DNA from: Myxococcota bacterium
Lineage (GTDB): Bacteria > Myxococcota > SpSt-1050
Direction: 5' to 3'
NCBI GenBank assembly: GCA_049969675.1
Contig: JBMFOP010000079.1
Span: forward strand, 1-13,755
Length of the DNA: 13,755 nucleotides
This document shows, one piece after another, positions 862 through 13,169 of this stretch; position 1 is the first letter of the stretch; each line of letters begins with the position of its first letter. Both the position numbers and the translations under genes were made by a program. Under the pieces are notes generated by a model, which saw only the letters and a list, made by a program, of their open reading frames with translations, made no database searches and was not told where the DNA came from.

Positions 862-1206
862 AGAATCAGGGGGACGGTTCTAACGCAGAGGGACGCGGGC
901 GGGAGCGACACCGGGGTTGTGCCTGACGCTACCGAGGATACAGGAGACGTTCAGGATGACGGGCCCGATGCTGGGGTCCCGACCGCGGACTTAGGCGCCG
1001 AATCTGACGAAGGTGGTCAGGTGGATACCGGTGACACCGTAGTCACTATAAATAGTGGAATGCCAACAGACACTGGCGGTACAGGCGACACCGACGCTGG
1101 AAACGACGCCGCGGCCAAGAGCGACACCTACGGCGGAAGGGACGGCGCTCCCGGACCCCCGACCGAGGAGAGCGTAGGGTGCTCGTGCGCCGTGCCTGAC
1201 ATCTGA
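862..1206 (+). pseudogene. Orphan C-terminal fragment of a surface protein: acidic DAG/DTG low-complexity linker ending in GCSCAVPDI*
   Basis: Frame 1 is open from 862 (after TAA 859-861) to TGA 1204-1206. No convincing RBS, start codon or signal peptide. Repeated DAG/DTG/DLG tripeptides. GC is about 65% over 901-1200, well above the flanks. The terminus parallels that of the vWA protein. Confidence 0.6.
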
Positions 1207-1556: not shown

Positions 1557-2891
1557 TTATGAAAAATCTTCAAAATAACGTTTATGCACATCCGAAAACT
1601 CTTTTAAGATCTTCCCTGCTATATTGCTACCGATTAAAGGATGAACAGATAGTGCCTTCTCTGCAAGTGTAAATGAGCGATTGAGAATTGATTGCGCGGC
1701 CAATGTCTCATATTCGGCAACATCTTTAATAAGATTTACAACAAATTCTGGAAGTTTATAATCTATCCTTTCAGACGAGATTCTTCCATTGCGAATTCTG
1801 CAGAACTTTTCAACTACCGTATCATCGGGTAGAAATGGGATGACACCGTTGTTCGGTAGAATCATCGGAATATTCAGGTTGATATTATCTCTAATGGCGG
1901 AGATGATTTTGAGTGCAATCTCTGCGTAACCTTCGGATTCATTCTCAAGCACCCTCCTCTTAATCTCCCTGTATGCATAAGACATATAGGTGGTGAATCT
2001 GTCACTGAGGTATCTCTCATATATCTCAATTAACCGATCTGGCGAATTCTCCTGAAGGAGCATCTTTATAAGTTCTCTATTCTTTCTTAAGAGATATTCC
2101 CCTCGGGTCTCTTTCTCCTCAGTCATACCTTTTAAGGCATCTTCAGTGCAGTAATAATAGTAGAGGTATTCATTTTTATAGATACCATCTTTTGTAAATA
2201 TCTCTCTTGTAAATGGCCCGTGTGCTATCTCATAAAATTTCTCATCATAAATAAGGCTGGGGAGTATATCCTTTCCTCTATCAAAAAACCTGATTGTCCA
2301 GGATAGGTGATTGAGACCTACTATCTCCGCATCAAAATCAAATCTATTTCTCCTGTATAATTCCGCTGTATGAATTCTTGCTGCATCTGATGAATCACAT
2401 ATACCTATTACATCATTGATCCCTACCAGGTTCAGTGCCTTTACAACTATCCCTGCTGGGTTCGTAAAGTTGATAAGGATACAGTCTGGACTTCTCTTCT
2501 TGATCTCCTGCGCGTATTCAATAAGTGCTGGCACAGTCCTTACCGCAAATGAAAATCCAGCCGCCCCTGTCGTCTCCTGTCCTATGATACCGTATTTGAG
2601 GCATAATCTCTCGTCTATAGCCCTTCCTTCCTCAAACCCCTCTCTTATTGTAAAGATTACGGCATTAAGTCCCTCTGCAAATTCTGATATTGAATTACAT
2701 CTGACGATGTTGAGCCTTCTATTAAATTTTTGCAAAATTGCATAAGAGAGTTTCAGGATGGCATCACTCTTTTTTTGGTCAATGTCATATATTCTGACCT
2801 CTCCGAGTCCTTCCTTAAACTTGAATTCCGAAAGCATCTTTAATATTATAGGCGAGCGAACGCCGCCACCCCCGAGAATGCCTATCTTCAT
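1557..2891 (-). CDS. Glycoside hydrolase family 4 (NAD+/Mn2+-dependent; 6-phospho-glucosidase-like)
   Basis: 444 aa. Rossmann KIGILGGGG, GQETTGAAG...RTVP, INFTNPAG, GICD and GLNHLSW are GH4 hallmark motifs. ATGA overlap with the upstream gene at 2888-2891. Confidence 0.92.
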   Translation of the reverse strand: MKIGILGGGGVRSPIILKMLSEFKFKEGLGEVRIYDIDQKKSDAILKLSYAILQKFNRRLNIVRCNSISEFAEGLNAVIFTIREGFEEGRAIDERLCLKYGIIGQETTGAAGFSFAVRTVPALIEYAQEIKKRSPDCILINFTNPAGIVVKALNLVGINDVIGICDSSDAARIHTAELYRRNRFDFDAEIVGLNHLSWTIRFFDRGKDILPSLIYDEKFYEIAHGPFTREIFTKDGIYKNEYLYYYYCTEDALKGMTEEKETRGEYLLRKNRELIKMLLQENSPDRLIEIYERYLSDRFTTYMSYAYREIKRRVLENESEGYAEIALKIISAIRDNINLNIPMILPNNGVIPFLPDDTVVEKFCRIRNGRISSERIDYKLPEFVVNLIKDVAEYETLAAQSILNRSFTLAEKALSVHPLIGSNIAGKILKEFSDVHKRYFEDFS

Positions 2892-3871
2892 TTCTCTCCC
2901 TCTATTTTCTTTGCATTTCCGAGCATAAATAATCCTCTATTGAGATAGAAAAGTCCCATAAGAATCTGACCGGTTATAAATACTACATTTGAGGCAAGTG
3001 TGGATGCCAGTATATCTGCCTTATCTCCGTATTTTTCGAACAGGATGAGACTCATCCCCTGAAATGTCCCAAGACCTGAAGGGGTTATTGGAATCGCAGA
3101 GACAAAGAGCGAGAGAAGTATTAGAGAAAGCCCCTCTGCATATGGAACTTTTATATTGAAAAACCACAGTGCCATTACCATATAGAATGCCTTTAGAAAT
3201 ATCCTCGGCAGCCTTGCCATAAGTATGGTGATAAGGTCTGTAAATGGGATCAAAATCAATGCCCCGAGCAACTGCCCAATTTTATTTGACATCAATATGG
3301 TAGAGACCTTCAATTTGTCGTTTTTGAAGATCCACATTATGAAGAGCCTCAAGATTAGATATATCGGGATGAAGAGTATCAGAGAGATGATGAGGTATGG
3401 AACGAAGTTTGAGACAGAGATTACCTCTTCTTTTATATTGAGTCCAAGTGCAATTGTAAGTGCAATAATGTCAATAAAGAGGAGGAGGAGTAGCGCCCCG
3501 CCCACATAGAAGAATGGGAGTCCAGATTTCTTGTGGTAATAATATCCGATTGACATCTGTCCTACTGCCTGATTGAGGAAGCCTATCAGTCCTGATATGG
3601 ATTTTACGATTAACATCTCGTTAAATGTTGTATAGATTACAGATTTGTCTATGAGTATCTTTGTCCCTAAAACATCTATGTAAAAGACCAGTAGAAAGAA
3701 GAGTATACTTGAAGGAATAAAATATTCGTATCTACCTCTTGATATGGCATCAGCGAATTTTGTAAAAGAAACAATATGAATCAGATAACCAAGTAACAAT
3801 GTACCAATCAGATAAGGCAAAGCCTTTCTTGTATAATATAAGAATCTATTATTTTCAAGAAAGCCCTTCAC
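2888..3871 (-). CDS. Lysylphosphatidylglycerol synthase TM-domain (UPF0104/YbhN, flippase-like) membrane protein
   Basis: 327 aa with many hydrophobic helices and the C-terminal IPITPSGLGT motif (P.TP.G.G) characteristic of the LPG_synthase_TM family. Confidence 0.75.
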   Translation of the reverse strand: MKGFLENNRFLYYTRKALPYLIGTLLLGYLIHIVSFTKFADAISRGRYEYFIPSSILFFLLVFYIDVLGTKILIDKSVIYTTFNEMLIVKSISGLIGFLNQAVGQMSIGYYYHKKSGLPFFYVGGALLLLLFIDIIALTIALGLNIKEEVISVSNFVPYLIISLILFIPIYLILRLFIMWIFKNDKLKVSTILMSNKIGQLLGALILIPFTDLITILMARLPRIFLKAFYMVMALWFFNIKVPYAEGLSLILLSLFVSAIPITPSGLGTFQGMSLILFEKYGDKADILASTLASNVVFITGQILMGLFYLNRGLFMLGNAKKIEGEK

Positions 3872-3882
3872 AAAGACCCTGT

Positions 3883-6030
3883 CTATTCAATCAGATTACA
3901 GGAGCAGGAGGAGGATGAGGATTCATCTGTAGATAAGTTATCTCTCTTTATACCACCATCTCTATCTATGTCAATATCGGAGGAGGGGGTGCCCTCATCC
4001 ATCACAAATGTATCCTTAATTGCAATATCAACAGATATATCAAGTGGTGGCCCGAAGTCATAACCGGCATCCTGAGAAGGTACTTCGCTTTTGTCAATAC
4101 ACTGTCCATCGTAACAGACCGCGGGGTACGGGCATTTTATTCTAAAACAGGGGTCATCCACACAGTTACCATCTTTACAGATTCTTCCCCATGGACACAT
4201 AATGTCCCAGCATCTATCTTCCACACAATCTCCGTCTTTGCATATCTTTCCATTTTCGCATCTGACATTGTAGCACTTATCTTCCACGCACTCCCCGTCT
4301 ACACATCTCTTATCTGTGCTACATTTGATTCCATAACAACTCCTGATACAGCTTCCATCTCTACAAAATTCATTTTCTCCACAATTTACATCTTTGCAGG
4401 GGTCATCTATGCATTTGTTATCTTTGCAGACCTTTTGGTCTTCACACTTTATGACATAACAGCTTCCATCAAGGCAGGCACCGTTTTTACATATCCACTT
4501 CTCGGGACAGACAAGTGAATCACAGGGGTCTATACAATCTCCGTTCTGGCATATCTTCCCTTCCGGGCAATTTACATCAAAACATTTATCATCTTTAAGA
4601 CACCATCCCTCACTATTACACCTCCTACCCGCCGGACACTCATTGTTGACGCACGGAACCACACATTGACCTTTATAGCAAACAGCGCCTCCACCACAGA
4701 TATCCTCACCTTCATCAACTTCACCATTACAATTATTATCTATCCCATCACAGATCTCCTGAGGGGTTGGGCCACATCCACCACATCCATTGTTTGGCAA
4801 TGGTGCATCACAGGACTTTTCATCCCATTTACCATTCAGGCAATACTCATAGCCCGTGCCACACTGATTGGCACATGGTCTTCTTAGTAGCTGGTTGTTA
4901 TCATTTTCATCTGTAAAACCGTCGCAGTCGTTATCAATTCCGTCGCACATCTCAGCAGAAGGGGTGTAAATCTGAATACATTTTAATGTATTGCCTTCAC
5001 ATCTATTGACACCGTATTTACATATACCAAAGAGTCCAGTATCACACTCTTTATTTTCATCTTCAAAGGATGGAGCGGTGCAATTTATCCATTTACCATT
5101 CTCACAGATCTCTGTCCCCTTGGTATTGCAGGCTCCCTCGCACTCACGGGTGAGCCCATCATCGGTCTTCCCATTGCAGTCGTTGTCTACACCATCACAG
5201 ATCTCCTTTGGTATTGTAATATTCAAAATCTTATTCAGTTCATTGGAAAGGGTCTGAGGGTCAGATGCATTATAAGCCTTATTATTGACAGCGGTTCCTC
5301 CAGCTATAGCCATATCGTTTAAGGATTGTGCACCTTTTGTATTATCACCATATCCAACTACAAATGTCTTTATGTCATAATAGTTCTGCCCATATTGTGT
5401 GGCTCTCAACTTTAAGACCGCTCCCACAGGGTCTCCACCACAGGTCTCTTCTCCGTCTGTGAGTAAAATTACATAGTATGGCCTGCAGTCTCTAATCGGG
5501 TCAGAGGGTAAGAGCTGATTTATAAAATAGTCTTTCATTGAGAGTAATGCCTTTTCAAGCGGAGTGGAGCCATCTGCACGAAGCTCTTTATCCTGAGGAT
5601 AATTTTCATTATTATCCATCCATTTTAAGATATCCTGAATGTTTGAGTCCTGAAGCGGAACCAGAACTTCACCCCCATTTGTGCAATTCTCGCTTCCATC
5701 GTAATTGATAGTCCTTCCCCCATATGCACTTGAGGGATGACTTACGCCCTCTTTCTGATAGAATCTCCCGAGCCCAAATGTAATCTTTGTCTGGAAGGAT
5801 TGTACCAGCGAGGAGAGGACACTCTTTGCGGTATATATCTTTGAATTTTTACCATCTCCATTGCAGGGGCTCCCGTTTGAGCCATCACAATATTGCTCTA
5901 CCCCCTGCGGATTCTCTGTCATTGAGCCAGATGTGTCAAAGAGGATAAGGACATAGGGTTTTACTGCCTGAGCATTTAATAGTGATGGCAGGATAAAAAT
6001 TATAAACAGGATAAATAATTTTTGCTTCAT
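3883..6030 (-). CDS. Secreted vWA-domain adhesin-like protein with MopE-type and other Cys-rich repeats and a C-terminal CSC motif
   Basis: 715 aa. RBS GAGGAG and Sec signal peptide (MKQKLFILFIIFILPSLLNAQA). vWA MIDAS residues DTSGS, GSTPL and LLTDGEE. Three E.CDG.DN.C.G..D repeats, eight C-x4-C-x5-C-x4-C repeats and an acidic linker. Ends SSSSSCSCNLIE. Confidence 0.88.
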   Translation of the reverse strand: MKQKLFILFIIFILPSLLNAQAVKPYVLILFDTSGSMTENPQGVEQYCDGSNGSPCNGDGKNSKIYTAKSVLSSLVQSFQTKITFGLGRFYQKEGVSHPSSAYGGRTINYDGSENCTNGGEVLVPLQDSNIQDILKWMDNNENYPQDKELRADGSTPLEKALLSMKDYFINQLLPSDPIRDCRPYYVILLTDGEETCGGDPVGAVLKLRATQYGQNYYDIKTFVVGYGDNTKGAQSLNDMAIAGGTAVNNKAYNASDPQTLSNELNKILNITIPKEICDGVDNDCNGKTDDGLTRECEGACNTKGTEICENGKWINCTAPSFEDENKECDTGLFGICKYGVNRCEGNTLKCIQIYTPSAEMCDGIDNDCDGFTDENDNNQLLRRPCANQCGTGYEYCLNGKWDEKSCDAPLPNNGCGGCGPTPQEICDGIDNNCNGEVDEGEDICGGGAVCYKGQCVVPCVNNECPAGRRCNSEGWCLKDDKCFDVNCPEGKICQNGDCIDPCDSLVCPEKWICKNGACLDGSCYVIKCEDQKVCKDNKCIDDPCKDVNCGENEFCRDGSCIRSCYGIKCSTDKRCVDGECVEDKCYNVRCENGKICKDGDCVEDRCWDIMCPWGRICKDGNCVDDPCFRIKCPYPAVCYDGQCIDKSEVPSQDAGYDFGPPLDISVDIAIKDTFVMDEGTPSSDIDIDRDGGIKRDNLSTDESSSSSCSCNLIE
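4096..4593 (-). repeat. Eight tandem ~20-21 aa four-Cys coding repeats (D-P/K-C-x4-C-x5-C-x4-C)
   Basis: DDKCFDVNCPEGKICQNGDCI, DPCDSLVCPEKWICKNGACL, DGSCYVIKCEDQKVCKDNKCI, DDPCKDVNCGENEFCRDGSCI, RSCYGIKCSTDKRCVDGECV, EDKCYNVRCENGKICKDGDCV, EDRCWDIMCPWGRICKDGNCV, DDPCFRIKCPYPAVCYDGQCI. Confidence 0.9.
4708..5205 (-). repeat. Three dispersed MopE-type putative metal-binding repeats
   Basis: EICDGVDNDCNGKTDDG, EMCDGIDNDCDGFTDEN, EICDGIDNNCNGEVDEG. Confidence 0.85.
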
Positions 6031-7289: not shown

Positions 7290-7304
7290 GGCTGTGAGGT
7301 GTTT

Positions 7305-9833
7305 ATGAAGAAACTCTTGACCTTCTTTTTCTTTCTCATCCTTTATAGCTGTGATGAGAGATGGAGGAATGTAGATACAAACTCCCCTTTAGATTCCTCC
7401 ACGACAGATACAGGGATTGATTCTGAGCTTGCCCCCGGCTTATATACGATAGAGTTGCACAATGATTTGTTCAATATCAGAAGTGGGGCGTTGTTTCTTG
7501 AAGGGAAGGGGATAAGTGAGGAAGTACCGTCTATGCTTGCCGCAAGAGATGTTGAGATAGCCTATGAGATGATGTACGGATCCTTTAAGCCAGTGGATAG
7601 AAATAAGACAAAGTGGGTCGGGGCAGATAGATTGGAATATGAGAGGCTATCAGAGGAGAGTATATCTGTGGTAATGTACAGGGAAAAGGAAAAATTAGGT
7701 AGACTGATTTTTCAGAGTAAAAGAAGTGATGAGGGGGGATTTTTACAGATAGACTTTTATCAGATTGGTAGATACAACAGATTTTCTATTGCATTCAGGT
7801 GTATGCCAGATGAGCATTTTATAGGATTTGGGGCTCAATCGATAGATGTTGACCATTATGGGAATACTTTATTTGGGTGGGTGCAGGAGCAGGGTATTGG
7901 CAAGATTATGAGTGACAGCTATGATGACCCTTTATGGTATCTATCTGGACGCAAGCATTCATCTCAGATTCCTATACCTCAGATTCTATCGAGCAGGAAT
8001 TATGTGCTTACTGTAATGGACAATATAAGACCGGTGATGTATCTCTGTTCTGAAGATCCTGAGACATTGAGATTGGAGTTTGATGCTGGAACTACGATTT
8101 ATCTCTTTGCAGGCAAATCCCCCAAAGAGGCGCTGAAAATTGCTACATCAGTTACTGGCAGGAGTCGTCTCCCTCCCGATTTTGCATTCTTCCCATGGAT
8201 AGATGCCATCTTTGGGAGTGAGAATGTAAGAAGAATTGCACAGAGATTGCGCGATGAAGATATACCATCCTCGGTGATATGGACAGAGGACTACAAAGGG
8301 GCTGAGTTTAAGGGTGATAGATATGTGTTGAGTGAAAGATGGAATATAGACCGCACTCTTTATCCCGACTTTGAGAGATTATCCGATGATTTGCATAATC
8401 TCGGTTTTAAATTTCTGGTCTACTTTAACTCATTTGTATATCTGGATTCAGATGTCTATTCGGATTTGAATGAGAGAGGTTATCTAATTAGAGATAGAAA
8501 TAATAAGACATATCTCTTTGATGGTGCAAAGGGGAGTAAGTCATCACTTCTGGATCTCTTAAATGAAGATGCTGTAAACTGGCTAAAAGATAAGATGAAT
8601 GATATAATAAAGAAGGGTGCAGATGGCTGGATGGGAGATTTTGCGGAGTGGCTACCAGCAGATTCAATTTTATACGATTCAAAGAATAAGAAGGATGTCT
8701 CAGGTCTACTCGTTCATAATCAATACCCGGTAATCTGGCAGAGAATTCAGAGGGAGGTGATTGATTCACAAAAGGATGGTAAGGATAGACTCTTCTTTGT
8801 AAGGTCTGGCTGGTTTGGGACACCTGCTCTTGCTGATGTAATCTGGGCGGGGGACCAGAGGACATCTTTTGATGAAGATGATGGGATGCCAACCATAATT
8901 CCTATTGGGATTGGACTCGGTATATGCGGTATATCAAATTTTGGCCATGACATTGCTGGGTATCAGTCAGCAACAAATCCACCCTCTGATAAGGAGCTCT
9001 TCTTTAGATGGACAGAGATTGGGGCATTCTCTCCTATTATGAGAACACATCATGGATATATGCCAAAATTGAACTGGTCCTGGGAGAGCGACGAAGAGAC
9101 CATTTCATTCTTCAGACGATATGCGAAGATTCACTCGTCTTTATTTCCATATCTAAAAGGATTGGCACTTGAGGCATCAGAGATCGGTATCCCTGCGATT
9201 CGTTCAATCGCAGTTGAATATCCTTCTGATCAGAATGTATGGACTATTAAAGACCAGTATCTGCTCGGAGAAAAGATTCTGGTAGCGCCCGTAATGAAGA
9301 GGGGCAATAGGGTAAGGAGGGTATATCTCCCTCAGGGCAGATGGGCGACATTTGAACAGAACGGCTTTTATATTGAAGGTGGAAGATATATTACAATCAA
9401 TTCACCGCTGGATTATATTCCAGTCTTTGTCAAAGAGGGAGGTATAATTCCACTGATAAAAGAGGAGATAAAGACCAATGTGGATATTGATAATATTTAC
9501 AGGAGCCAATCCTGGAACCTGCGATATAGAATAATAAAATTGTTTTTGGGAAAGGATGGATATTTTAGAGAAAGTGATAGATTAAGTTATAGATTGAGGA
9601 TGATACAGGAATATTCTGAGAGGAAAGAACTGCATTTTAAAGTTGATGGGAGAGAAATTAATATATGTGGCGAAAGCAGACAAAATTGTTATAAGAAAGA
9701 TGAAGCAGATAGATATATCCTGTATGTCGGATCTTGTGCAGAGGTTGAAATCTATATGGAAGATAAGAAGATAGCCCTTTTTCAGATAGATTCAAAAGAG
9801 GATTTTGAATCAGAGATAAGGGTATTCTATTAG
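7305..9833 (+). CDS. Glycoside hydrolase family 31 lipoprotein (YihQ-like alpha-glycosidase)
   Basis: RBS GAGG at 7296-7299 favours ATG 7305. Signal peptide MKKLLTFFFFLILYS-C. Nucleophile motif GWMGDFAEWLP, acid/base motif WAGDQ, plus GHDIAGY, ELFFRW...FSPIMRTH, QYLLGEKILVAPV, VYLPQGRW and IPVFVKEG. Confidence 0.92.
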   Translation: MKKLLTFFFFLILYSCDERWRNVDTNSPLDSSTTDTGIDSELAPGLYTIELHNDLFNIRSGALFLEGKGISEEVPSMLAARDVEIAYEMMYGSFKPVDRNKTKWVGADRLEYERLSEESISVVMYREKEKLGRLIFQSKRSDEGGFLQIDFYQIGRYNRFSIAFRCMPDEHFIGFGAQSIDVDHYGNTLFGWVQEQGIGKIMSDSYDDPLWYLSGRKHSSQIPIPQILSSRNYVLTVMDNIRPVMYLCSEDPETLRLEFDAGTTIYLFAGKSPKEALKIATSVTGRSRLPPDFAFFPWIDAIFGSENVRRIAQRLRDEDIPSSVIWTEDYKGAEFKGDRYVLSERWNIDRTLYPDFERLSDDLHNLGFKFLVYFNSFVYLDSDVYSDLNERGYLIRDRNNKTYLFDGAKGSKSSLLDLLNEDAVNWLKDKMNDIIKKGADGWMGDFAEWLPADSILYDSKNKKDVSGLLVHNQYPVIWQRIQREVIDSQKDGKDRLFFVRSGWFGTPALADVIWAGDQRTSFDEDDGMPTIIPIGIGLGICGISNFGHDIAGYQSATNPPSDKELFFRWTEIGAFSPIMRTHHGYMPKLNWSWESDEETISFFRRYAKIHSSLFPYLKGLALEASEIGIPAIRSIAVEYPSDQNVWTIKDQYLLGEKILVAPVMKRGNRVRRVYLPQGRWATFEQNGFYIEGGRYITINSPLDYIPVFVKEGGIIPLIKEEIKTNVDIDNIYRSQSWNLRYRIIKLFLGKDGYFRESDRLSYRLRMIQEYSERKELHFKVDGREINICGESRQNCYKKDEADRYILYVGSCAEVEIYMEDKKIALFQIDSKEDFESEIRVFY

Positions 9834-10963: not shown

Positions 10964-10991
10964 TTGACATATCCCAATTTGTATGTATTAA
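10964..10991 (+). promoter_or_regulatory. Putative sigma70 promoter for the first PAP2 gene
   Basis: Perfect TTGACA(10964-10969)-N16-TATTAA(10986-10991), followed by RBS GAGGA at 11003-11007. Confidence 0.45.
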
Positions 10992-11014
10992 GAGTTGCAT
11001 TTGAGGAATTTGTG

Positions 11015-12028
11015 GTGGAGAGTAAGAGAAGTTACAATTTAACAAAGAGATTCAAAGAAATAATAGATAAAATACTATTTTACATTGGTCCAGATTTAAT
11101 ATTCCTCTTCTTACTCATTCTGGTTCTGGTAATATTGAGCATTGTATATGGGAATAGGAAATTCACCCCTGTAAAGAAGTCGGTGATTGTCCCATTTATA
11201 GTCTTTAGTGGGCTTCTATTTGCTGGCTTTATATCAAGGATTAAATTGATTACTTCGGGTAAAAGAGAGAAGTTGAGAGAGGTTCGTGATTTTGTACTGA
11301 ATATGGCAAGGGATTGGTTTCCACTTCTTCTGATTGTGCTTGTATATGAAAATCTACACGACCTAACTGACTTGATTCACCCGTATACACTTGATGGCAA
11401 ATTACGAGAATTGGATAGGATGATATTTGGAGTGGACCCCACACTTTGGCTGGAAAGAATAATAAGTCCAGCTCTAAATGATTATATGACATTTGCATAT
11501 GGGCTCTACTTTCTATATCCTGCAACTATATTGGGAATAGTCTATTCAAAGGGGGATATATTTAAGTTTAGAGAGGTAGCACTCTCATTCGTCATCTGTG
11601 TGGTGGCTGGTTTTATTGGATATGTAACAGTTCCGGCGGTTGGTCCGAGATATTTTATGGCAGATGAGTTTTCAATCTCTCTTACTGGATATCTCACAGA
11701 GGCTGGGGCAAAGGCGTGGAATTCAATAGAGTCAGTTAAAAGAGATTGCTTCCCGAGCCTGCATACTTCGATGAGCACCATCACACTTGTCTATTTTTAC
11801 AGGTTTAGAAAATATTATAGAGGAGGTAAGATTCTATTCTATATAGCCCTCCCGCTTGTTATAAGTCTCTGGTTCTCAACTGTATATTTGAGATATCACT
11901 GGGTGGTGGATGTCTTTGCTGGATGGATACTTGCGCTAATATGTGTGAATCTCTCCCCAGCATTTATCAGGTGGTATTATCGCTGGCACAGCGGGATAGT
12001 TGTTGAGGTCTCTAAAGATTTAAAATAA
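11015..12028 (+). CDS. PAP2-superfamily membrane protein, AUR1/inositol phosphorylceramide synthase-like (PAP2_3), paralog 1
   Basis: Multi-TM protein with motifs GYVTVPAVGPRY, DCFPSLH and STVYLRYHWVVDVFAG (His/His/Asp triad). Start GTG 11015 (or 11012) follows GAGGA; the TTG at 10964 is the -35 box. Confidence 0.88.
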   Translation: MESKRSYNLTKRFKEIIDKILFYIGPDLIFLFLLILVLVILSIVYGNRKFTPVKKSVIVPFIVFSGLLFAGFISRIKLITSGKREKLREVRDFVLNMARDWFPLLLIVLVYENLHDLTDLIHPYTLDGKLRELDRMIFGVDPTLWLERIISPALNDYMTFAYGLYFLYPATILGIVYSKGDIFKFREVALSFVICVVAGFIGYVTVPAVGPRYFMADEFSISLTGYLTEAGAKAWNSIESVKRDCFPSLHTSMSTITLVYFYRFRKYYRGGKILFYIALPLVISLWFSTVYLRYHWVVDVFAGWILALICVNLSPAFIRWYYRWHSGIVVEVSKDLK

Positions 12029-12157
12029 ACGGTTATTATCCCATTTATTTGTTATATGAGTTGTCTATCTTAGAGAAAAATCAATTATACTGTATTTGCC
12101 AATCTATTAACACAATCAAACGAATGTCAATAGTGTCTGATAAATCAATAAATTTAG

Positions 12158-12186
12158 TTGCATATTTCAAAAAGTGTAATTATCTT
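12158..12186 (+). promoter_or_regulatory. Putative sigma70 promoter for the second PAP2 gene and the PPC gene
   Basis: TTGCAT(12158-12163)-N17-TATCTT(12181-12186), with GGAG RBS at 12202-12205. Confidence 0.45.
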
Positions 12187-12212
12187 CTCAACCCTTCTAC
12201 TGGAGTCTTTTT

Positions 12213-13169
12213 GTGAGATTTATTAAGAAAATTTACTCCCTTCCACCCGATTTTCTATTTTTAGGAATCTTTGGAATTGTTCTGGCTTCAATTGTTGTAA
12301 AATTTGGTGGTTCTCTCAAATGGGTGGATGGTTCAATAGTTCTGCCTGCCATCGGAGCATCTATTGTATTTATATGGACTGTGGTCTATAAAGCCATTAA
12401 GAATAAACTCCATTCGGCATACGATATATGGATACTAATTAAGGATTCTGCTATTATTTTGAGGGATTGGTTGCCACTTATACTTATGATACTTGTCTAT
12501 GAAAATCTAAAGGATAAGACAGCATTGATGGAGCATAAGACTATTGAGCGGACCCTTGCAAGAATTGATGCAGCAATATTTGGAGGAGTGCAGCCAACTC
12601 AATGGCTGGAGAGATATACACACCCATTGATAGTTGACCTTATGGCTTTAAATTATGCACTGTATTTTATCCTCCCTCTCTCTGTCTGGTTTACATTGTA
12701 TCTTTTGAAAAATCAGAGGGGATTCTATGAGGTCTCAACTGCTATGATATCCACACTCTATCTCGGATATATTGGGTATGTGATATTTCCAGCGGCACCT
12801 CCCAGATTTACGCTCACTTATGAGGCACCACTGCCGAGCCTATTTTTACACCATTTCTTGCAATCAAATTGGGATAAAGCAGCTGCTGTGATGCTTGGTG
12901 CCTTTCCGAGTCTGCACGTAGGTCTCTCTACAATCTCAATTATCTTTGCCTATAGATATATAAATGTCCTGCCTAAAGGTAGGCTTTTCTTCTGGATTGT
13001 AACACCTTTGACTGTAAATCTCTGGTTTTCAACAGTCTATTTAAGACACCACTGGGTGGTGGATATTTTTGCAGGCTGGTTTGTGGCAATTTGTGGTTCA
13101 ATGATTGCAATTTATGGAGTGAATCTCTGGCTTAAAAAGAGGGAAGATTTTTCAAAGAAGGAGGATTAA
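12213..13169 (+). CDS. PAP2-superfamily membrane protein, AUR1/IPC synthase-like (PAP2_3), paralog 2
   Basis: 318 aa multi-TM protein with motifs GYVIFPAAPPRF, GAFPSLH and STVYLRHHWVVDIFAG. Collinear with paralog 1 (RDW.PL.L..LVYENL, GV.PT.WLER). Confidence 0.88.
   Translation: MRFIKKIYSLPPDFLFLGIFGIVLASIVVKFGGSLKWVDGSIVLPAIGASIVFIWTVVYKAIKNKLHSAYDIWILIKDSAIILRDWLPLILMILVYENLKDKTALMEHKTIERTLARIDAAIFGGVQPTQWLERYTHPLIVDLMALNYALYFILPLSVWFTLYLLKNQRGFYEVSTAMISTLYLGYIGYVIFPAAPPRFTLTYEAPLPSLFLHHFLQSNWDKAAAVMLGAFPSLHVGLSTISIIFAYRYINVLPKGRLFFWIVTPLTVNLWFSTVYLRHHWVVDIFAGWFVAICGSMIAIYGVNLWLKKREDFSKKED

Follow-up and report, generated by a model that had tools for sequence, protein, structure and literature searches.

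The tagged protein and its surroundings

The window, the whole stretch of 13,755 nucleotides that we analysed, lies on contig C79 of genome G000 (3.05 Mb, 38.9% GC, 99.9% complete), and its source organism is known from this assembled genome only. The labels of homologues and marker trees point to Myxococcota. The open reading frame at 3883–6030 (minus strand) encodes a protein of 715 amino acids, assigned from its translation, from Pfam matches to PF00092 and PF11617 and from its homologues. It comprises a hydrophobic N-terminus, in which we predict a signal peptide by eye (approximately 5971–6030), a von Willebrand A (vWA) domain, MopE-type Cys repeats, further Cys-rich repeats, a spacer and a C-terminal tag. 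The spacer (3910–4095, minus strand, from the translation) is an acidic, Ser-rich segment of about 62 residues between the Cys-rich stalk and the tag and is likely disordered. Positions 3883–3921 (minus strand) encode SSSSSCSCNLIE followed by a TAG stop codon and form the C-terminal end of the frame. The tag itself, S-C-S-C-N-L-I-E-stop (3883–3909, minus strand), is delimited by the sequence and by position counts over 33 such tags (see below); its first Cys codon lies at 3904–3906 and its second at 3898–3900. The closest orthologues, P0001–P0004 (78–80% identity), share the short ending, confirming the linker and short CxC tail that a first-pass annotation had proposed for this protein. A contig of sequencing run X1 matches window positions 3340–4300 with zero differences; X1 may be the source sample, and the match therefore does not count as independent confirmation.

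The next gene (2888–3871, minus strand; translation and Pfam) encodes an LPG_synthase_TM-like membrane protein and begins at a GTG at 3871, 11 bases past the stop of the tagged frame. A separate stretch encoding a helix would not fit in behind the tag, which agrees with the annotation's statement that no transmembrane segment is hidden there. The gene itself is outside the tag system. Together with two tandem PAP2-family membrane proteins at 10964–13169, which show weak likeness to phosphoinositol dihydroceramide synthase, and with GH4 and GH31 glycosidases (1557–2891 and 7299–9833), it possibly forms a glycolipid or inositol-lipid cluster. Within positions 1–826, an open frame running in from the contig start stops at 350 and a coding-like stretch continues in another frame to about 490, so a frameshift is possible; a DsrE-family gene follows at 506–826.

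The window contains a second copy of the tag in a gene remnant at 862–1206 (plus strand; open frame and translation), where an acidic linker precedes a tag at 1177–1206. The frame ends VGCSCAVPDI-stop, with five residues behind the second Cys, and the like linker and CxC tail reported for it earlier are indeed present. It has no signal peptide and a GC content of 64% versus 39% for the genome, and it likely stems from a high-GC relative. Both this composition and the five-residue tail, the form found in the sister-family genome G001, would fit a G001-like donor; a search of G001 to G004 did not find the donor. We rejected the idea that the remnant is a decayed full MYXO-CTERM signal, since no Arg cluster is present and five-residue tags are normal in G001. 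For the same reasons, a hydrophobic stretch in another frame, some 40 bases past the stop, is likely the start of another gene remnant.

The tagged remnant sits in an island of 61% GC (827–1330) within the 39% GC genome, and in another frame of this island a hydrophobic stretch at about 1235–1320 resembles a signal peptide. The X1 contig tracks the window to position 842 and then diverges in sequence, leaving 843–1250 uncovered by X1, which suggests that the locus is variable.

Occurrence of the tag

To count tags in G000, we called open reading frames mechanically (longest non-overlapping, at least 100 amino acids), which gave 2304 frames with a stop. CxC followed by exactly four residues and a stop occurs in 35 of them, compared with 0.87 expected per position; five residues follow CxC in four frames, and 6 to 11 residues in none of the 2304. 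Forty frames carry CxC with three to five residues behind it, and we removed by eye five without Gly/Ser-Cys and an acidic linker. The remaining 35 true tags have four-residue (33) or five-residue (2) tails, so that the tag, previously described from just two examples, is present in 35 copies in addition to the remnant at 862–1206. The 33 four-residue tags follow the consensus G-C-[SG]-C-[SNT]-[ILV]-[IL]-E-stop, with counts of G(30)-C(33)-S/G(30)-C(33)-S/N/T(29)-I/L/V(22)-I/L/V(31)-E(23). Both Cys are thus invariant (33/33) and Gly nearly so (30/33); where the last residue is not the Glu found in 23 of 33 tags, it is Phe, Tyr, Asp, Trp or Asn. The 40 residues preceding these tags contain 15% Asp, 14% Ser and 9% Glu. 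Their stop codons are divided between TAA (15), TAG (9) and TGA (9), and the use of all three, together with unrelated downstream DNA, rules out read-through or recoding. A search for single-Cys tags in G000 gave seven matches, and the three inspected were short chance frames.

The tag is not limited to one protein family. Its carriers fall into 21 homology clusters, and only 23 of 630 pairs are homologous (in a set of 36 that includes one likely false tag). An N-terminal hydrophobic stretch without any other helix is found in 32 of 38 proteins of the tag set versus 551 of 2202 others (p = 5e-14, by a crude hydrophobicity proxy rather than SignalP), which bears out the suggested enrichment among proteins resembling signal-peptide proteins. 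Besides the window protein, 27 of 34 carriers have a Pfam match at 1e-6. The families include peptidases (papain, subtilase, M4, M10 and M64), other enzymes (amidase, GH15, GH25, peptidyl-arginine deiminase and two purple acid phosphatases) and vWA, Ig, kelch and beta-helix proteins; carrier length ranges from 227 to 1390 amino acids. A lipobox regular expression matches one of 36 carrier N-termini, and about three more are possible by eye, so most carriers have no N-terminal anchor. Tagged proteins with a possible N-terminal lipoprotein Cys are encoded in G000 at C102:3357–5945, C58:3288–5408, C4:19999–21666 and C38:18626–22264 and may be anchored twice; in the C102 protein, each end bears a Ser-rich CSC motif.

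Across the four genomes of the genus, the DNA pattern G-C-x-C-x-x-hydrophobic-x-stop matches 32, 44, 27 and 44 times, and its reversed control 0–2 times; one of the genomes with 44 matches, G004, is 85% complete. A stricter pattern gives 14–27 matches in the genus versus 0–3 in the other 297 genomes of the phylum that were searched. G001, the sole other genome of the class, belongs to a different family. It has four TIGR03901 matches above the cut-off but most of its tags are short, with five or six residues, indicating that the loss of the helix is older than the genus. The G001 counterpart of the window protein, a homologue with 55% identity, terminates in SCSCATVGLY-stop. Degenerate five- and six-residue patterns in G001 lie below their reversed controls (131 versus 222 and 34 versus 60 matches), and our statement on this genome therefore rests on inspected loci: nine acidic-linker tags on open frames among the first 30 of 131 pattern loci, and, by eye, about 37 acidic-linker tag forms among the 100 matches listed.

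A search by myxosortase similarity yielded 80 genomes, 50 of which we examined for tags. G310 has 20 matches versus three in controls, 17 of the 20 behind an acidic linker and ending GCGC-[STA]-aliphatic-aliphatic-F or similar, and G320 has at least three tags of this kind. In G337, G331, G339 and G348 the tag has a single Cys (S-G-C plus five residues), and eight of 11 fetched loci show this form on long frames. G308 gives 67 matches versus 33 in controls, and about 55 of the 67 matches listed read [GS]GCGC-stop; its papain homologues end GCGC, GCGW or GCGL, with no or two residues past Gly-Cys. Tail length thus varies from 0 to 6 residues depending on the lineage, and Gly-Cys is the common element.

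Trees of rpoB and gyrA place the genus as sister to G001 (SH-aLRT 99 and 98), apart from G308 and G310. For gyrA, an AU test rejects the union of the seven short-tag genomes in one clade against 11 tripartite ones (p = 2.7e-6; one gene, a quick tree, groups fixed after the trees had been seen and seven rows unlabelled). This indicates that short tags probably had at least two origins or spread horizontally.

Relation to MYXO-CTERM and the candidate machinery

The tag occupies the position of a known sorting signal. Distant homologues of the window protein carry a Cys motif, a membrane helix and an Arg cluster, i.e. a full MYXO-CTERM signal, where the window protein has the tag. Among its best 120 homologues, a scoring rule classes 75 as tripartite, 14 as helix-free and 31 as other, the last consisting largely of full signals that the rule failed to recognize, or of partial proteins. 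Close orthologues have no ordinary tail of transmembrane segment and Arg residues; such tails are confined to the distant homologues. Judged from these alignments, the tag is therefore most plausibly a derivative of MYXO-CTERM by loss of the membrane helix and the Arg cluster, and the relationship to MYXO-CTERM put forward in the first-pass annotation holds.

The tail is not a plain truncation. Among the 33 G000 tags, a hydrophobic residue stands at position +1 behind CxC in 3%, at +2 in 79%, at +3 in 97% and at +4 in 24%; the corresponding values for 83 full signals, all from the family of the window protein, are 1, 28, 2 and 2%. Hydrophobic residues at +2 and +3, frequent in tags and much less so in full signals, show that the tail was rebuilt.

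No existing model that we found describes this ending. When 35 aligned tails (21 from G000 and 14 from G310) were searched at E 10 within HMMER filter limits, none matched any NCBIfam model, including the CTERM models that might have covered it. TIGR03901 and TIGR03382 give no match over the cut-off in G000, G002, G003 and G004, and a manual scan of G000 for helix-plus-basic tails with a GC motif revealed no convincing full MYXO-CTERM. Pfam gave two weak matches of the 35 tails to DUF4266 (PF14086; best E 0.005). A profile built from the tail alignment, which is very short, found one match among 1.84 billion proteins. The tag is lineage-wide, is not covered by any model found and falls outside MYXO-CTERM because it has neither helix nor Arg cluster. 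It likely works like MYXO-CTERM despite their absence.

G000 encodes a single PF02517 (CPBP) protease, which matches the myxosortase core NF040914 with 115.9 bits (cut-off 100); the suggested link to a CPBP-family myxosortase is thereby supported. The protease scores under the MrtX, MrtC and MrtP cut-offs and just above that of MrtJ (77.5 versus 75). It retains EExxxR, His and HxxxN, which are invariant in the alignment and are named as the catalytic motifs of myxosortase by Guo et al. (PMC11980579). Myxosortases over the NF040914 cut-off are present in G000, G001, G002 and G003; the 85% complete G004 has no match. Among three species, myxosortase dN is 0.33–0.36, and dS is saturated or near-saturated. 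The myxosortase gene of G000 (C85:9392–10048, within locus L001 at C85:7741–11023) adjoins a carD-like gene and ispDF in tail-to-tail orientation, an arrangement conserved in G002 and G003 and not in G001. In G001, full and short signals coexist with one above-cut-off myxosortase. The partial protease sequences of G310, G320, G337 and G331 reach 80–85 bits, below the NF040914 cut-off. Support for uniting the myxosortases of short-tag lineages is SH-aLRT 89 in a 44-row tree but 16 in a 52-row tree; in the group tables of both trees G001 counted as tripartite-only, although it carries mostly short tags.

Two genomes of 6 Mb, G307 and G311 (loci L025 and L029), have myxosortase cores above the cut-off (118 and 125 bits). 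In neither do TIGR03901 or TIGR03382 match, and patterns with 0, 4 or 6 residues are not in excess. Retention of the enzyme thus does not prove that tagged substrates exist, and these genomes may hide a further form of the tag.

The type II secretion (gsp) operon of G000 has GspC, D, E, F, G and N above their cut-offs. G000 also has two tandem Lgt genes in an ileS-lspA-lgt-lgt operon (C4:291–2600, locus L005); the tandem pair is found in G001 and G350 as well, and about 45 additional amino acids are inserted in the second Lgt. We considered whether a second Lgt might mark genomes with short tags and rejected this, as extra copies do not track the loss of the helix: of 44 genomes examined, 38 have at least two Lgt matches, with either signal type. 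Lgt is therefore treated here simply as a candidate.

Proposed mechanism and comparison with known systems

We consider it probable that the tagged proteins are lipidated at Cys, trimmed by myxosortase and displayed on the surface through type II secretion. The observations behind this proposal are the tag, its unrelated cargo, its positional homology with MYXO-CTERM, the rebuilt hydrophobic end and the machinery genes. The predicted N-terminal signal peptide would export the tagged protein, and the two aliphatic residues behind the second Cys would take the place of the helix, allowing the tail to reach the inner membrane at its outer face. Acylation of Cys would follow, catalysed by an Lgt-like enzyme that may belong to the tandem pair, and myxosortase would cleave behind the last Cys, much as Rce1 removes aaX from CaaX. 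Finally, by analogy with Myxococcus xanthus, the type II secretion system would carry the lipid-anchored protein to the surface.

Conservation of the myxosortase in a genome with no detected full signal for it to serve argues for this mechanism, and Haft (10.1101/2023.06.07.544157) reports having found no genome with a myxosortase but without a signal. Against it, the membrane helix of the substrate, proposed in the same work as the feature that myxosortase recognizes, is absent from the tag. In addition, the G308 tails leave little or nothing to trim, the incomplete G004 combines its 44 pattern matches with no myxosortase match, G307 and G311 have the enzyme without a detected tag, and four proteases from short-tag lineages remain under the cut-off. 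According to Guo et al. (PMC11980579), MrtX cleavage in M. xanthus is Cys-dependent and Lgt is proposed for an acyltransferase that is unidentified, so that the lipidation of MYXO-CTERM is itself a model, even in M. xanthus.

The most serious alternative, which we regard as unlikely, is anchoring by a lipidated tail that remains uncut. The genes would then encode a nearly mature end, and myxosortase would serve another substrate or role. The prevalence of GCGC-stop in G308, the lineage-dependent tail length and the myxosortases without detected tags in G307 and G311 would all be expected, and some M. xanthus TraA is surface-exposed without MrtX (Guo et al., PMC11980579). However, in G000 the tail has a fixed length (four residues in 33 of 35) and a constrained composition, as expected of an enzyme pocket, and the protease is conserved although no full signal was found there.

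A role of CxC as a thiol handle instead of a lipid site, i.e. a disulfide to an envelope partner, metal binding or redox activity, as might apply to the CXC of DUF4266, would explain why both Cys are invariant in G000, but we think it improbable. Single-Cys tags in G337, G331, G339 and G348 and the GCGW and GCGL ends in G308 exclude an internal disulfide as the shared function. Moreover, the tag is found where homologues have MYXO-CTERM, and its cargo consists of hydrolases and adhesins rather than redox proteins. Least probable of all is that the tail survives as a relic of MYXO-CTERM, or serves as a mere secretion or turnover signal, on proteins released to the medium. Positional homology does indicate descent from a full signal, and TraA without MYXO-CTERM is released via the type II system (PMC11980579). 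However, two invariant Cys, a single length and new hydrophobic residues would not persist in a dead remnant on 27–44 pattern matches in each of four species, nor would such a remnant recur in distant lineages.

In what appears to be an entire class of bacteria, the sorting system operates without a helix, and HMM-based annotation therefore misses the surface proteome of these lineages. The tripartite design of motif, membrane helix and basic cluster is standard for prokaryotic C-terminal sorting signals, and the helix forms part of how such signals are searched (Haft, 10.1101/2023.06.07.544157). Our literature search, with most subscription journals outside its coverage, found tripartite signals only and no helix-free form; Table S1 of Haft, which lists curated MYXO-CTERM proteins, could bear on novelty. 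In the passages covered, 10.64898/2026.07.10.737566 mentions neither CTERM nor myxosortase. The natural series of tails (full helix, 5–6, 4 or 0 residues; one or two Cys) maps the requirements of the enzymes, and the tag offers a very short substrate for the questions raised by Guo et al. (PMC11980579), namely the identity of the enzyme that lipidates MYXO-CTERM and the site of MrtX cleavage. Should eight residues suffice, they would provide a minimal handle for surface display.

Like MYXO-CTERM (TIGR03901 and the related TIGR03382), the tag has G-C-x-C after a low-complexity linker at the C-terminus, is borne by dozens of unrelated signal-peptide proteins per genome at the same position in homologues, and is accompanied by one myxosortase (MrtX/MrtC/MrtP; core NF040914) per genome, plus a system for type II secretion. 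The cargo is also alike, hydrolases and adhesins, as described by Guo et al. (PMC11980579). Unlike MYXO-CTERM, the tag has no hydrophobic helix, with the stop four or five residues behind the second Cys in all 35 cases, and no Arg cluster; its +2 and +3 residues are aliphatic and its end residue is usually Glu. JDVT-CTERM and Synerg-CTERM as well as CGP-CTERM resemble it in an invariant Cys after a Ser/Gly-rich run and in a candidate enzyme of the CPBP family, but all three are tripartite, the shortest, CGP-CTERM, having 20 amino acids with a helix, and none matched the tails. DUF4266 (PF14086) is likewise a secreted protein with a helix-free C-terminal CXC, but it is one small family in ApbE/DUF3570/thioredoxin clusters, whereas the tag is portable over unrelated enzymes and the window neighbours belong to none of the ApbE, DUF3570 or thioredoxin families.

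Read backwards, the end of the tag, C-[small]-[aliphatic or small]-[aliphatic], resembles a lipobox. As speculation, this would be compatible with a reversed substrate for Lgt; the G308 tails do not fit this idea.

With the CaaX box and Rce1, the tag shares a Cys near the C-terminus with aliphatic residues and a free end behind it, the absence of a membrane helix and a candidate enzyme from the same CPBP family. The spacing C-x-a-a-X is one residue longer, however, placing the second Cys fifth from the end, and the tag has an additional Cys upstream. CaaX proteins are cytosolic, whereas the tagged proteins are predicted to be exported. The resemblance is formal. It is conceivable, though we hold it with some doubt, that the tag is a working bacterial counterpart of CaaX processing, in which a helix-free tag of eight residues suffices for lipidation and trimming by an Rce1-family enzyme outside the inner membrane, which arose at least twice from MYXO-CTERM and whose mirror-image lipobox end points to Lgt as the acyltransferase. 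If eight residues do suffice, the gap between the substrates of bacterial myxosortases and those of eukaryotic Rce1 narrows.
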